DNA of 64,000 bases from Candidatus Marinacidobacterales bacterium (GCA_965237955.1 OZ250169.1:2016001-2080000); one strand, 5' to 3'. Shown: positions 3,644 to 57,265, counted from the stretch's first letter. Notes: generated by a model not told the origin, from the letters alone. Translations and numbers: made by a program.

Positions 3644-3720
3644 CGTCGTGTCCAAAAACTCGAACGGTGCCGAGAAGCTAGAATCCTAGAGGCGTTCTCG
3701 AAGTCCGCAAAAATTTTCTG
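3644..3720 (+). repeat. Type-B2 rve-element terminal repeat (tip at 3644, facing left)
   Basis: CGTCGTGTCCAAAAACTCGAACGGTGCCGAG...GAGGCGTTCTCGA; homologous to 16586, 27885, 37451, 38816, 48252. Confidence 0.8.
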
Positions 3721-3735
3721 CGGGCGCCGGGCTGG

Positions 3736-4025
3736 TGACCGCGTAGTCTTCTCCGCTGCGTTTAGACGGCTTGCTCACAAGACACAGGTACACCCTCTAT
3801 CGGACAACGATCACGTTCATACGAGGCTGACTCATAGTATCGAGGTTGCATCGGTTGGCAGGTCTATGGGTACGATCATTGGATCGCCGATCGCGGTTAG
3901 ACTGGGCAATCCCCAGATTACCCCCGATACGTTCGGGTACATCGTGCAAGCAGCCTGTCTCGCCCACGACATCGGCAACCCTCCATTCGGCCATGGTGGG
4001 GAAGATACAATAGGCGGATGGTTTA
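3736..4025 (+). pseudogene. dgt: Internal fragment of an HD-superfamily dGTP triphosphohydrolase
   Basis: [45 protein letters not shown]. Confidence 0.9.
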
Positions 4026-4427
4026 ATGTCCCTCTCGGGGATGGGTGAAATCCCTCGCCTTTAGGCGAAGCCTTCAGGGGGCTTGCGGTACGATGTATGG
4101 ATGCAAGGTTATCGTAAATCATCGCACACGACGTATTTACTGCATTATCACTTTGTATTCATCCCGAAGTACCGCAAGCCGATATTGCGAGGAGATGTAG
4201 CAATTCGAGTTCGGGAGCTGGTAAGGGAGATCTGTCGGACGAACAACATAGAGATCCTGAAGGGACATGTGCGTCCGGAGCACGTGCACCTGTTGTTGAG
4301 CGTGCCGCCGCACCTGGGGCCGAGCCGAGTGATGCAGGCGATCAAGGGGAAGACCTCGCACCATTTGCTGAGAGATTTTCGGGCGCTGAGAAAGCAGTTC
4401 TGGGGCCGGCACCTATGGGCTCGAGGG
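4026..4427 (+). mobile_element. tnpA: IS200/IS605-family left end and Y1 HUH transposase, 3'-truncated
   Basis: Hairpin TCGCCTTTAGGCGA; ATG 4101; YHFVFIPKYR, EHVHLL (HUH), KGKTS, FWGRHLWARG, then unrelated sequence before the catalytic Tyr. Confidence 0.85.
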
Positions 4428-5053
4428 AACAAATCGCTCACACCGAAAAATCTGTGGGCGTTCGCCGCTGGACGCGGCGCGCAAGAAAAAACGCTCGCCG
4501 AGCTGCGCGGTCAGTTCGCACTCGACGTCGTACCCACCAACGACTATGCCGCCAACAACGCTTGGCAGCAATTGAAACATCCTCGCTCACAATCTCTGTC
4601 GAGGATTTCAACTGGATACTATCGCCGAGAACAAGCCGCCCTCACCAAAACGGACCTCCATGTACGTTCTACACAGCGTGAGAACGTTGCGGTTTCTCAT
4701 TATTTCCAAAGCGGGACGACTCGTTCGTATCGGGGGCCGCAACGTCCTCCGAATGTCCAGAAACTCGGACACTCAGCGGCTATTTGAAGATCTCGAACTT
4801 GCCTTGGCGTCTTAGATTTATTTGCGATTAAGGTTAAATTACGGCCAAAATAGCGCTCACGACCTTCGCTGCGCGCTAAATGAAGCGTAAGCGCCTTTTT
4901 TGCAAAGGGATGCGTACACATCACCAACAGCAAACAGCGCAAGCACCATTTTGTCAGTAACCAGCTCAAGTTGACAGTACCCTTATAACCATTTGTTTCA
5001 ATCTGAACCGCCCCGGGTTTTCCGGAGACTCCAACTCTTGAGAGGATGGAGTC

Positions 5054-5374
5054 ATGGCAAGACGAAGCAGGTATTCACCGGAGTTGAAAGAGCGAGCAGT
5101 GCGGATGGTTTTCGACCAGCAGGCTCAGCACGAATCTCAGTGGTCAGCGATCTCATCGATCGCGTCGAAGATTGACTGCACGCGGGAAACGCTACGCACG
5201 TGGGTGCGGCAAGCAGAGCGTGATGCTGGGAAGCGCGCGGGGCTGACGACGGACGAGCGTCAGCGGCTGAAGGAGCTCGAACGAGAGAACCGTGAGCTAA
5301 AGCGGTCGAACGAGATCCTTCGCAAGGCGTCGGCGTTTTTCGCCCAGGCGGAGCTCGACCGCCGACCGAGGTGA
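5054..5374 (+). CDS. IS3 transposase OrfA
   Basis: [43 protein letters not shown] leucine zipper. Confidence 0.92.
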
Positions 5375-53810: not shown

Positions 53811-56599
53811 CCCGCTAACGCTTCATTCAATTCGTCAATCACGCTATCCATCCGGTTCCCGAAGAGCTTGTACATTTGGCCCATGCCGCCCTTGCTATCG
53901 AACGGAGCCATGTCAAGGTCGTCGCGGTCCAGATGAAAAGAACTGATGACGTGGTCGCGAATCATGCGCAGCCATTCCATCTGCTCCTCATTGAATTTCT
54001 GTCCGCGACCACTATGTCGCGTCATGATCCAGTTCTGGAAGTTGCGCCGCACGGTTTCTGAATAGGGCGAGACCTTCGCATCAATGCCACAGACGCAGCG
54101 GATCAGCGCCACGAGCGCCGTTAGTTCAGTGGCGGGCTGCTGCCCCTTGTAGTCATCGAGCAGGGCGTAGGCCTGCCAGACGCGTAAGGGGGCTAGGCGG
54201 GGCTTGTCAGCTCTAAGCTTGTCGAAGATTTTGCGGATCATCGCGTAGCTCAGCTCACTGCGCCGATGCGGCTGGGCGTAGAAGATGGTCAGGGCTTCGA
54301 TCTCGTCGCGGTTAGCTTCCAGATATTGCTGGAAGTCCTGTGCCATCGCCTCTGCATTTTCCTTGGCGTCGCCCTCCCATTCGGCCCGGAGCACGGTGTC
54401 GAGGCTCTCATGATCGATGGTCTGTTCCTTGTCGCGGCGGATGGAGTCGATCAACTCAATCAGCTCACCGTTGAAGACGGTTGCCGCATCACTGACCAGC
54501 TCGTCCTGAGCTTTTTCGCGTGCGGCCAGTGCCGGCTCAGCGCCGTCTGCGATCGGCTCGATCACGCGGGCCCTGGCCTCAACGCGATCGGGATCGATGG
54601 CGGCCAGCAGATTGCCGATGATCTCGGTGAGCTCTATGCCGCTCGCCTTCTCCCGGATGCGCTCCTGCTCCTGGTGGTCGAGCTGCCGGTTGAGGCGGGC
54701 GAGGCGGCCGGCGAGTGAGCTCACCGTGTCTTCGTCACGAGCACCCATCATCACGCCCATGGCCAGATCCTTGAGCGGGACGGAAGGCTTTGTGATGAGT
54801 GGCTGGCTGGCGGTCTTGAGCGATTTCGTCACACCGACGGCGTCGACAATCACATAGTGCGTCTTGCCGCAGGCGACTGAGGGCGAAACCTTCTTGAGGT
54901 CGTCATGGTCGAGTGTGCGGGTGCCGCGGCCTTTCATCTGTTCGAAATAGTTGCGGCTCCTCACGTCGCGCATGAAGAGCAGGCATTCGAGCGGCTTGAC
55001 GTCGGTACCCGTGGCGATCATATCCACGGTTACAGCGATACGCGGGTAGTAGTCGTTTCGGAACTGGGCGAGGACGGATTTCGGATCTTCTTCGACCTTG
55101 TAGGTGATCTTCTGGCAGAACTCGTTGCGTTCAGCAAATTCCTCGCGCACGGTCTGGATGATGTCGTCGGCGTGGCTGTCGGTTTTGGCAAAAACAAGCG
55201 TCTTTGGGACTTCGCCGCGGCCGGGGAATATCTCCGACAGCTTGTCGCGAAAGGTGCGGACGACAGTGCGGATCTGATCAGGGTTGACGATGTCTCTGTC
55301 GAGTTGCCGGGCGGCATAGGTGACGTCCTCATCCTGGATCTCCCAGCGCTTTCGGCGTGTCAGGCGCTCGCGCTTCTCGACCTTCTGGTCCTCCTTGAGT
55401 TGGCCGCCATGCTTGGTCTTCTCCGTATCGATGACATAAATTTCGTTGCCGACATTGACGCCGTCCGCGACGGCTTGCTCATGGGCATACTCGCTGACGA
55501 CGTTCTTCTTGAAGAACCCATAAGTGCGGTTGTCCGGCGTGGCGGTGAGGCCGATGAGATAGGCGTCGAAATATTCAAGGACCTGGCGCCAGAGGTTGTA
55601 AATTGAGCGGTGGCATTCGTCGATGATGATGAAGTCAAAAAACTCAAGTGGAATCTTGCCGTTATAGACGACCGGCATCGGTTGTTTGGGCTGCACCATC
55701 TCCGCCGGGTTGATCTGCTCCACGGCTTCATCCAACTCCTGGTCCTTCAACAGCGAGTACATACGCTGGATGGTGCTGATGCAGACCTGGCTGTCCTTGG
55801 CAACGAAGGAGGATTTCAGCCGCTGCACGTTGTACAGCTCCGTAAATTTACGGTTGTCGTCACTAGGCACGTAGGCCGTAAATTCCTGCTCGGCCTGTTC
55901 ACCGAGATTCCTGGTGTCCACCAAGAACAGGATCCGTTTGGCGTCAGCGTGCTTCAGCAGACGATAGATCGATGTGATGGCGGCGTATGTCTTGCCGGAC
56001 CCGGTCGCCATCTGGATGAGGGCCCGCTGGCGGTCGTCCCGCAGCGACTCTTCGAGCCCTTCAATCGCTGTGATCTGGCACGCCCTGAGGCCTGAGGGGT
56101 TGAGGCTGGGCATGGTGCGTAGCCGTGCGCGCAGCGGTGCGGGTTGCGTGAACCACCCGGCCAGCGTTTCAGGGCGGTGGAAATTAAAGACCTCGCGCGA
56201 GCGGGGCTTCGGGTCGCGGGTATCGGTGAAGCGCGTCACGACGCCCGTGCTCTCTTAGATGAAGGGAAGCGGCTCCTTGTTGTTTAGCCATTTCAGCTTT
56301 GCGGCCGCGTAGCCAGCAGACTGATCTTCAACCGTCGTGATCTTCTGGCCCCAGTCCTCGGGTTTTGCCTCGATGACGCCGACCGGGTTCTTGTCGATGA
56401 ACAGAACGTAGTCGGCGGGACCGACATCCGTCTGGTATTCGCGGATGGCGATGCCGAAGCCAGCGCTGAAGTCTATCTCGTTTTTCGACTGCACCTTCCA
56501 GCCAGCCTCGTCCAGCAGCTGGTCGATGGTGTCGCGCGCCTTTTGTTCGGGGGTGCGGTTCTTGTCAGCCATTGCTTCGGTCATTTCATATTGAGCCAT
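53807..56599 (-). pseudogene. hsdR: Type I R-M restriction subunit with an in-frame premature TAA at 56255-56257
   Basis: PADY..IEAK, LPFI*ESTG, MATGSGKT, DECH, LTATP, QMKGRG; the two ORFs are in the same frame. Confidence 0.92.
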
Positions 56600-56649
56600 C
56601 GGTTGAACTAGTTTTGCGCGAGTCGGTTTGTGCCGTCGATACTGAAAAT

Positions 56650-56875
56650 ACCGTGATCGGCCAGCACAGCATAGTCTCCCTCGGAGGCAAGCGCGATCTG
56701 ATTGCGCAGGTCTACGACGGACTCATACCCGTTGCGGCGTCCCTTCTCTTTCGTCGTGGCCGGCGCGTTCTCGTAGTAGCTGCGACCCAACGCCTCCGTG
56801 ACCTTACGCTCGAGTGCGTACTGAAGCATCATCCGCGCTCCCGGGATGTGTCTCGAACACGGAGGGCAGCGCGCA
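56650..56875 (-). pseudogene. IS256-family transposase N-terminal scrap
   Basis: ARMMLQYALERKVTEALGRSYYE...RRNGY. Confidence 0.6.
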
Positions 56876-56938
56876 TTGTGAACGTGCGCACCAGTACGAG
56901 CAGAGCTCAACAGATTTGCGATAACGCCGAAGTGACCT

Positions 56939-57090
56939 TGACCTGACCCCACGGTTAGTACCACGTTGTATCTCAGTAACTCGGTGCTGACAAGGGCTGG
57001 TTGAAGCCGGCGGAGCGGAGCCGGTTTAAACCAAATCGTTTCCGGTGAGCAGTTCGTCGCGTAGCTTACAGTTGAAGCTCTCTACGTAAG
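56939..57090 (-). mobile_element. IS3-family 3' scrap with right IR
   Basis: YVESFNCKLRDELL; end GTGGTACTAACCGTGGGGTCAGGTCA. Confidence 0.55.
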
Positions 57091-57265
57091 CTGTGCCCGT
57101 CGTGTCCAAAAACACAAACGAACTCAAGACTGGCGCGCCGTGTTAGCGGCGGGCGTAAATTGCACACTCGGCCATCCGTAAAAGGAGGCCGTTGTCGTGT
57201 GTCTGGAGTGCCAGACATGACGGCGCGCCTTCAATCAGAATGGCGTTTCCGGAGTGGAGGCGCCG

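Follow-up and report, generated by a model that had tools for sequence, protein, structure and literature searches.

Ends of several insertion sequence families in the window

The window, meaning the whole 64,000-nucleotide stretch analysed here (positions 2016001-2080000 of contig C1 in G000, the 8.13-Mb single-contig source genome of a Candidatus Marinacidobacterales bacterium), consists over most of its length of whole and truncated genes set between the ends of related DDE insertion sequences (IS; Table 1). Other G-numbers used below (G006, G007, G010, G016, G021 and G033) denote relatives. An earlier note on this DNA had described about 44 rve/IS481-like ends delimiting a polarised array, and overall that observation is confirmed: the ends are real, and 44 were counted, namely 17 of type A, 13 of type B, six of type C and eight of types F, G and H. 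All 17 A coordinates it gave are tips of one conserved end (...GGCCGAGTTTTGGCACAGGACG-3'), with 13 facing right and four left as claimed, and the six C tips, five of them right-facing, are also as described (the one at 38997 is degenerate). Thirteen of the 14 supposed B tips belong to that type, the one at 25084 being the tip of a different related end, type G; the claimed 11 of 14 facing left becomes 10 of 13 true B tips, and where seven F/G tips had been listed eight were found, type H included. Searches of 30 shuffled versions of the window with the A and B patterns returned 0 matches.

The label IS481-like does not fit the termini: the last three bases are ACG-3' in types A, B, F and H and CCG-3' in type G, and only type C has the ACA of IS481. 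Uninterrupted alleles show that these terminal bases belong to the element. Coding sequences had been said to stop exactly at tips, and genes are indeed cut at 17457, 22145, 27885, 30306, 35138, 42848 and 49844; several cargo genes are whole by Pfam coverage, however, including the helicase (18953-21493), an RNase-H-like gene (23185-24687), an EEP gene (41555-42367) and hsdM.

Table 1. Transposon ends, composite units and cargo in the window (window positions unless a G000 position is given)
Feature	Position	Strand	Remarks
Tip-rich mosaic zone	3644..57098		zone G000:C1:2014620-2073098; first tip 1,380 bp left of window; 45 tips; 7.7 per 10 kb
Full type-A element	48396..49844	+	~100-bp inverted repeats; 5'-CGT...ACG-3'; no target duplication; 1,449 bp, 21 nt over usual 1,428-bp copy
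Single-ORF DDE transposase	48524..49615	+	363 aa (other copies 356); D178, D244, E279
A-A mini-element, 316 bp	21719..22034		15 copies in genome, flanks different each time
A-A mini-element, second copy, 317 bp	34822..35138		right end cuts a transposase gene
Hybrid unit, C end left and A end right	18554..18859		15 copies, both flanks differ in most
Larger hybrid block, B end to A end	16586..18859		nested tips B 17457, H 17757, F 17844, C 18554
Other copy of the 16586..18859 block	G000 8077479-8079655		both outer flanks different
Hybrid unit, B end to A end, 823 bp	29484..30306		4 copies; A tip cuts Calx-beta autotransporter gene
Hybrid unit, B end to C end, 366 bp	42435..42800		second copy, other flanks, G000 1011137-1011502
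B-bounded segment	37402..38816		B 37402 and 37451 left-facing; B 38816 right-facing; C tip 37679; ORF of no known family; no transposase inside
A2-type end, 54 nt, fused to head of DUF2924/large serine recombinase element	22092..22145	+	same type at 30253-30306, 46455-46508, 50448-50501
Left-end fragment of A element, 404 nt	44720..45123	-	tip faces right
Left-end fragment of A element, 110 nt	33977..34086	+	sole left-facing solo A tip in window
Short A end	36789..36850		inner side cut by C tip 36792
Short right-facing A remnants	39607-39695, 39881-39942, 42812-42848		similar to 36789..36850
Glycosyltransferase-like gene fragment (cargo)	42849..44665	+	joined to A tip 42848; 3' part also at G000 4667752-4668703
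Calx-beta autotransporter gene	30307..32959	-	3' end cut by A tip 30306
Whole DEAD-box helicase (DUF3516) cargo gene	18953..21493	+	A tip left; F, G, A tips right; no second copy in genome
B end, thioesterase gene, C end	33052..33845		thioesterase plus C end duplicated at 36074-36792; further copies, differently flanked, in other zones
F and G tips, left-facing	21508..21560		tips of related elements
Further F/G/H tips	25084 (G), 38945 (F), 39548 (H), 42388 (G)		
Type I restriction-modification cargo	50713..56599	-	between A tip 50501 and B tip 57098; hsdM, hsdS whole; hsdR interrupted by in-frame stop

Transposases and their relatives

The A element measures 1,428 bp, with inverted repeats of ~100 bp and a single 356-aa open reading frame (ORF). 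The earlier statement that only one full cognate transposase is present is true within the window (48524-49615; 94-97% identical relatives occur in Candidatus Marinacidobacterales metagenome-assembled genomes, MAGs), but not of the genome: besides the 1,449-bp window copy, G000 carries 20 further full-length A copies of 1,420-1,432 bp, with a median identity of 97% and 10 intact ORFs. The B element (1,350 bp) encodes a protein ~51-55% identical to that of A, the C element (1,255 bp) a transposase 29% identical to it, and F and H ends bound a further relative at G000 1421828-1423027. Tips of the A2 type number 77 in G000; at least 12 of them have at least 2.5 kb of the DUF2924 and large serine recombinase element behind them, an arrangement also found at L183:1-2300.

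In Pfam the A transposase matches HTH and rve_3, and D178, D244 and E279 are invariant across 60 homologues. A structure model with a predicted local distance difference test score (pLDDT) of 70.5 matches IstA, retroviral integrases and TnsB; the single-sequence fold has a pLDDT of only 42, and a PDB sequence search returned nothing below E=0.07. Its best profile match is IS481 (NF033577), at 95.2 bits against a cut-off of 224 that is not reached (the best E-value among the 60 homologues is 1.2e-30), and the 79.8 bits obtained with the IS3 profile NF033516 also stay below its cut-off of 160. No IS6-type transposase was hit in Pfam or NCBIfam.

The clade to which the A transposase belongs is large: of 8,000 candidate protein clusters scored, 7,924 pass E<=1e-20. 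It is annotated only as 'integrase core domain' or 'InsO family' and has relatives in cultured Streptomyces and Bradyrhizobium; plasmid relatives, 27-38% identical, are annotated merely as integrase core domain proteins or transposases. Six Streptomyces or Bradyrhizobium copies in which both ends were placed start with TGT (one with TAT) and, judged by eye, have no duplication longer than 2 bp. On Leptospira plasmids (loci L175-L180) a distant homologue (~29%) stands behind the same kind of HTH gene in five of six loci, and the genes after it vary. In at least one of these loci a short motif lies on both sides; the left flank is common to all six, which leaves no duplication test.

Target junctions

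The normal paired target duplications that the earlier note had said would contradict its reading were seen at none of 28 full copies: duplications of at least 3 bp flank 0/22 full A elements and 0/6 full B elements, and they are equally absent from 20 B mini-elements. Two of 15 A mini-elements have a match of at least 3 bp, both CCC and at chance level. Controls in the same genome do carry duplications, at 17/18 ISL3 copies, 109/113 copies of a CTAG-duplicating miniature inverted-repeat transposable element (CTAG-MITE), 18/37 IS21 copies and 7/16 IS3 copies. When 99 left/right pairs of A flanks were compared with random pairing, matches numbered 21 vs 19.4 at 1 bp, 10 vs 7.6 at 2 bp and 3 vs 2.8 at 3 bp, with none longer. 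Relatives behave in the same way: across 800 kb of G021 and G033 duplications accompany 0/6 full and 0/29 mini copies, with the flank pattern of G000, and none of 35 related loci with both tips has a duplication of 4 bp or more. A clean empty site was found in none of the 58 pairs (of 139) with homologues of both flanks, the nearest spacing being 37 bp, and four isolated core elements (L152, L155, L159 and L160) yielded no usable empty allele.

Passages of He et al. describe ~70 IS26 copies without any paired duplication and caution against inferring a new mechanism from absence alone (PMC4471558). On this precedent the missing duplications by themselves prove nothing, and three further tests were therefore applied, concerning the target matrix, partner junctions at hot spots, and tracers left in flanking DNA.

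Base composition at 147 uninterrupted A targets (in percent: -3 A54/G31, -2 C59/G28, -1 G41/T26, +1 G65, +2 G80, +3 G61/A27, +4 T65) defines an asymmetric motif, R-S-K^G-G-R-T, and the matrix is self-complementary at no stagger between -12 and +16, the range examined. Types B and C have asymmetric target motifs of their own, different from that of A. For the hot-spot test 943 A junctions were assembled (501 from G000 and 442 from relatives), of which 131 could be placed on a set of 13 multicopy reference elements, where they represent 121 events at 72 sites. Reuse of the same bond on the same strand accounts for 192 pairs, one bond having been used 14 times and another 10, and these 121 events include 0 opposite-strand partner pairs for any implied duplication between -2 and 11 bp. 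A search for reverse-complement tracers recovered a peak at 8 bp for ISL3 (17 vs 0.6) and one at 6-7 bp for IS21, but no excess at 4-15 bp for A flanks.

Two other accounts of the junctions were rejected. The terminal CG could be a 2-bp duplication, or ACCC^GGGT could have been the target of a blunt insertion; the sequence of uninterrupted alleles is A-C-K^G-G-G-T, however, and partner pairs at 0-2 bp number 0. Long fixed target duplications are known from IS1202; here the flanks give no such signal out to +80, and there is a single long repeat in unique DNA.

Units with unlike ends, and what lies beside them

Pairs of ends recur as units both of whose flanks have changed. These include A-A units (28 full copies, and a 317-bp form in 15 copies) and B-B units (129 bp, 12 copies), and also units bracketed by different families: A-C (309 bp in 15 copies, 147 and 178 bp in six each, 272 bp in four), A-F (138 bp, 11 copies), A-B (823 bp in four copies, 2,225 bp in two) and B-C. 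Four hybrid units lie in the window, and the blocks running from a left-facing end to a right-facing A end, as the earlier note described them, do recur as units in the form B-left...A-right. Since A and C ends differ in terminal bases, target motif and transposase, each end is probably handled by its own enzyme. The small units resemble MITEs insofar as multicopy non-coding units with paired ends exist (the 317-bp A-A and 129-bp B-B forms), but among the 15 A and 20 B mini-elements a target duplication matching the parent IS is absent.

One insertion in the core genome is informative. A 2,843-bp segment bounded by B ends and carrying a gene for a Gate-domain membrane protein (weak match) lies at G000 2545797-2548639 and is flanked by an 88-bp repeat of 97% identity; in G006, G007, G010 and G016 its flanks are adjacent. 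Elsewhere 706 and 1,152 bp are lost and 179 and 326 bp overlap between the flanks, spacings that fit single-end joining. At G000 3557484-3558735, window segment 29441-30306 is joined straight to 33592, a 3.3-kb deletion from one A tip. Low-copy duplications between zones end with an inward-facing tip at 48 of 230 ends, against 1.7% by chance. At L022 (~2870-4340), where an A copy has an intact left end, a 24-bp repeat begins exactly where the matched ORF stops and is found again ahead of the left end, possibly a one-ended insertion. Abutted A-A end junctions are absent from G000, the closest facing A tips being 25 bp apart; at G000:C1:7468976-7468977 a G tip and a B tip stand head to head with zero spacer.

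Mosaic zones

Six tip types were counted genome-wide, giving 982 tips in G000, among them 501 of type A (241 on the plus and 260 on the minus strand) and 230 of type B. Twelve zones totalling 1.79 Mb, or 22% of the genome, hold 896 of the 982, and that of the window ranks fourth in tip density among 64-kb tiles. When zones were redefined from non-A tips only, to avoid circularity, they covered 21% of the genome and still held 452 of the 501 A tips. By comparison they held only 28/113 CTAG-MITE, 24/93 IS5, 6/18 ISL3, 14/36 IS21 and 9/17 IS3 full copies, and the density of the A target motif is near equal inside and outside (1.84 vs 1.72 per kb). Mapping of ends across the genome bears out their concentration in zones, and the orientation of the A tips is balanced overall.

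The zones contain four of 55 tRNA calls; unique DNA makes up 39% of them, low-copy DNA 25% and high-copy DNA 36%. Capture of host DNA had been proposed, but as far as core genes are concerned it is minor: low-copy DNA with a copy of at least 90% identity outside the zones makes up only 2% of the window's zone, and several window cargo genes have core-genome relatives only 65-86% identical, so that most cargo looks foreign or shuffled from zone to zone.

The A tip was found in 10 of 40 relatives, spanning five genera and two families, with 29-494 matches in nine of the ten; 400 kb of G021:C2 holds 79 plus-strand and 95 minus-strand A tips. In G016 the flanks of the window's zone are inverted and separated by ~80 kb, and in the other four genomes compared they fall on separate contigs.

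Discussion

On the sequence evidence we favour, with a probability of roughly 0.62, a reading that takes the window as a mosaic zone with ~44 ends from several related DDE insertion sequences, all unclassified, each end having been joined to its target singly and by its own transposase. This reading brings together the ends themselves, the family-specific asymmetric target motifs, the absent paired junctions, the hybrid units, the one 88-bp duplication and the confinement to zones. In such a pathway the transposase would nick one end at ACG-3' (ACA-3' for C) and transfer the 3'-OH to the R-S-K^G-G-R-T bond on one strand, at a target that resembles the end's own junction (ACG|GGGT). The branched product would then be resolved by host replication or branch processing; host-processed single-strand end transfer is described for IS911/IS30 end-targeting in passages of PMC7986276 and PMC9333248, and an asymmetric first step of copy-out transposition in a passage of PMC7780238. 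The other border would be closed by a separate second transfer, in which an end from the same family or from another one joins at its own motif, and the products would be deletions, variable-length duplications and hybrid-ended units rather than a fixed target duplication. Most events in the core genome would be lethal, and ends would accumulate in dispensable, largely foreign DNA, chopping and copying cargo and each other.

The interpretation first offered for this locus is partly supported. That the pattern is not one of ordinary random IS insertion is supported, and so, by the junction statistics, is the idea of DDE transposases acting at one end; the picture of one special locus, the work of a lone transposase copy, does not agree with 12 zones and with several related transposase families contributing ends.

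Several observations weigh against single-end joining. All the evidence consists of finished genomes, with no fresh event or reaction among it, and the absent duplications are no proof, given the IS26 copies that also lack them in the passages cited above (PMC4471558). The hot-spot events may share ancestry, which would inflate the 192 reuse pairs. A flanks do have a 3-bp reverse-complement excess (2,041 vs 456), which we ascribe to GGG and CCC flank classes because real left/right pairs show none; the CC class retains the +4 T and upstream A-C of the normal motif. The tracer test is itself weak at 3 bp, a length at which the IS3 control gives no peak either. For type C, two C-C pairs give a 13-bp match where 0 were expected; the flanks concerned read as A-end sequence, and A ends are a target with 500 copies. 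The unit copied most often is the full A element with its two ends (28 copies), which implies that the ends usually move as a pair. Apart from the 88-bp case, no left/right pair within 40 kb has a long duplication in unique DNA, since the remaining candidates lie in 20-70-copy repeats, and neither 107 related loci nor 720 kb of two relatives yielded a long duplication beside both ends. The 706-, 1,152-, 179- and 326-bp spacings lie in 20-160-copy repeats and may pair unrelated copies, 161 of the 230 duplication ends have no tip, and in a noisy test for the reciprocal junctions expected of crossover products no class stood out at offset 0.

The strongest competitor, though an unlikely one at perhaps a third of the weight of single-end joining, is conventional two-ended transposition with a short duplication, either IS26-like copy-in or IS3/IS481-like copy-out-paste-in, whose partner junctions were erased by intramolecular deletion and by recombination among hundreds of copies. 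Erasure accounts for IS26 arrays without paired duplications (in passages of PMC4471558 and PMC7986276), and it finds support in the deletion from tip 30306 to 33592 (junction at G000 3558349), in the loss of duplications from half of the G000 IS21 and IS3 copies, and in the predominance of full two-ended copies. If two ends attacked together, the target matrix should nevertheless be self-complementary and hot sites should have partner junctions, and neither is seen; IS26 leaves 8-bp tracers, according to a passage of PMC4471558, and A leaves none; the same recurring unit can be bracketed by ends of families only 29% identical; and the sole informative core insertion has a duplication of 88 bp.

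Insertion into pre-existing DNA breaks during rearrangements has been proposed for IS481/IS5 events without duplications, and passages of PMC11708052 place an IS481 copy lacking a target duplication at the centre of a 60-kb duplication. We consider this improbable here, because cutting by the transposase is indicated by junctions that fall on family-specific motifs, different for A, B and C, and by the use of one and the same bond as often as 14 times. In the same passages, the four older, established SBW25 IS481 copies carry putative 4-bp duplications, unlike the full A and B copies.

Comparably improbable is the integron-like array, growing one way from a fixed site, that the earlier note had proposed, although the local polarity on which it was built is real and exceeds chance. 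Counted over all A tips of the window the bias is marginal (13/17, p=0.049), and it becomes clearer for solo tips outside intact two-ended units, 10 of which face right and one left. Genome-wide, removal of 108 tips of intact two-ended units leaves 393 solo A tips that are locally biased (chi-square 50.4 over 23 tiles; 0/2,000 permutations), A and B biases are opposite in 10/10 zones without an A tie (p=0.002), and four end-cargo-end segments are duplicated in one direction. Set against this, the 12 zones are of both polarities and balance genome-wide, successive solo A tips agree in orientation in only 193/359 cases (p=0.17), no single growth point is apparent, and cargo is usually faced by ends from both sides. 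Tyrosine recombinase (PF00589) has 18 matches in G000 but none in the window, the nearest being ~590 kb away. The spread of B...A blocks and end-cargo-end duplications may contribute to the polarity. With the origin put at 1.2 Mb, solo A tips face with the replication fork in 225 cases vs 168 (p=0.005); dnaA, however, lies at 2.35 Mb, which would set the window against that trend.

An assembly chimera through repeats is least probable of all: G000 is probably metagenome-assembled (its named relatives are MAGs), 36% of zone DNA is high-copy, no sequencing-run contig examined spans the region and most junction-crossing contigs have fewer than 31 letters on the repeat side, yet repeats of the same size keep correct duplications (1.4-kb ISL3, 17/18), nine other genomes carry 29-494 A tips and the two examined share the flank pattern without duplications, contigs of run X15 cross junctions 42848 and 44665 alongside the parent allele, and mis-joins inside repeats cannot yield tip-to-motif junctions. 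For the cargo at 42849-44665, contigs of all four runs examined, from four studies, continue into an uninterrupted parent locus with ACG^GGGT at the cut, and in X15 depth is ~25 across the window junctions vs ~50 for the parent allele. X15 may be the source sample, and its 42848 contig has fewer than 31 letters on each side within the stretch examined, so this support for the junctions is partial only.

How single-end joining as proposed here relates to known systems can be set out by family. IS481 elements have 5'-TGT...ACA-3' termini and target duplications of 4-15 bp. With IS481 (NF033577) the present elements share a single-ORF DDE transposase with an rve-type, RNase H-like core and a similar size (1.2-1.4 kb), and type C and the Streptomyces and Bradyrhizobium relatives also start with TGT; they differ in the sub-threshold profile score of the A transposase, in A and B ends that start with CGT, and in an asymmetric, single-strand target. 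IS3 elements are built on a frameshifted orfA/orfB pair, whereas A has one ORF (356 aa in 10 intact copies), and the abutted ends of an IS3-type circular intermediate have no A-A counterpart retained in G000. IS91-type elements undergo one-ended transposition by a rolling-circle HUH (Y2) enzyme, and the A transposase instead has a DDE fold and triad. Integrons and clusters of attC sites lacking integron-integrases (CALINs) likewise hold unrelated genes in a row with repeats between them and some local polarity, but the repeats here are the inverted-repeat ends of DDE elements that flank a transposase gene, and there is no single insertion point.

The closest parallels are mechanistic. In IS911/IS30, as passages of PMC7986276 and PMC9333248 describe, one end is transferred, the host processes the branched product, RecG is implicated, and the target resembles an end junction, as it does here; there, however, this is a side route beside normal duplicating insertion and is aimed next to an IS end, whereas here single-strand transfer appears to be the only route and to be aimed at a 7-bp motif in ordinary DNA. 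IS26/IS6 arrays, in passages of PMC4471558 and PMC7986276, similarly have ends with cargo between them, no paired duplications, and neighbouring deletions and duplications, but IS26 needs identical ends, whereas units here carry ends of different families. In telomeric TnsB transposons, according to part of bioRxiv 10.1101/2024.11.13.623437, a single transposon end also sets one border; the other is the telomere, whereas here both borders are DDE ends inside the chromosome. The system accordingly works most like IS911/IS30 single-strand transfer and yields IS26-like arrays, and it falls outside IS481, IS3, IS6, integrons and IS91. We found no description of the clade, its CGT ends or the zones in a literature search that did not cover ISfinder/TnCentral, most subscription journals or supplements.

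A broader proposal, to which we would give a little less than an even chance, is that in a very large unnamed clade of bacterial DDE transposases the two ends are fully uncoupled. Each end would then serve by itself as a recombination site specific to one strand, a mobile unit would be formed by any pair of ends that face outward, whether or not they come from one family, and their activity would build and reshuffle a gene-accretion compartment that, in several genera, takes up a fifth of the chromosome. DDE transposition has as its hallmark the concerted joining of two ends with a fixed duplication, and single-end transfer is described as an intermediate or side route. If single-end transfer does act alone, it would be a missing pathway in a widespread group, and it would explain the origin of megabase-scale mosaic zones, the cutting and fusing of genes of unrelated origin, and why duplication-based IS finders would miss such elements. 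These would be gene-shuffling agents unlike textbook transposons. Because the ends and the 7-bp target are defined and intact transposase copies exist, the claim could be tested directly in a laboratory strain.

Other features of the window

The right border of the glycosyltransferase-like cargo (44665-44720) has no transposon tip, and in sequencing-run contigs the next 55 bp belong to another context. In runs labelled as sponge metagenomes, 46-59% of the words of window 40-48 kb are present. A dGTPase-like gene and a type IIG restriction-methyltransferase gene are present as fragments at 3572-4048 and 7559-8170, and a group II intron D1-D4 fragment (RF02003, 116 bits) lies at 25823-25959 on the minus strand. 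The 124-bp CTAG-MITE used as a control lies at 8592-8724 and 18402-18533 and has 113 full copies across the whole genome. At 10690-12072 an ISL3 element is inserted into an IS21 copy with an 8-bp duplication, and another IS21 copy (57141-59328) is inserted with a 5-bp duplication into the B end at 57098. To the left of the first tip of the window, at 997-3186, an RskA-like gene is followed by a radical SAM/SPASM gene, and the RskA-like part has two 83% copies in other zones.

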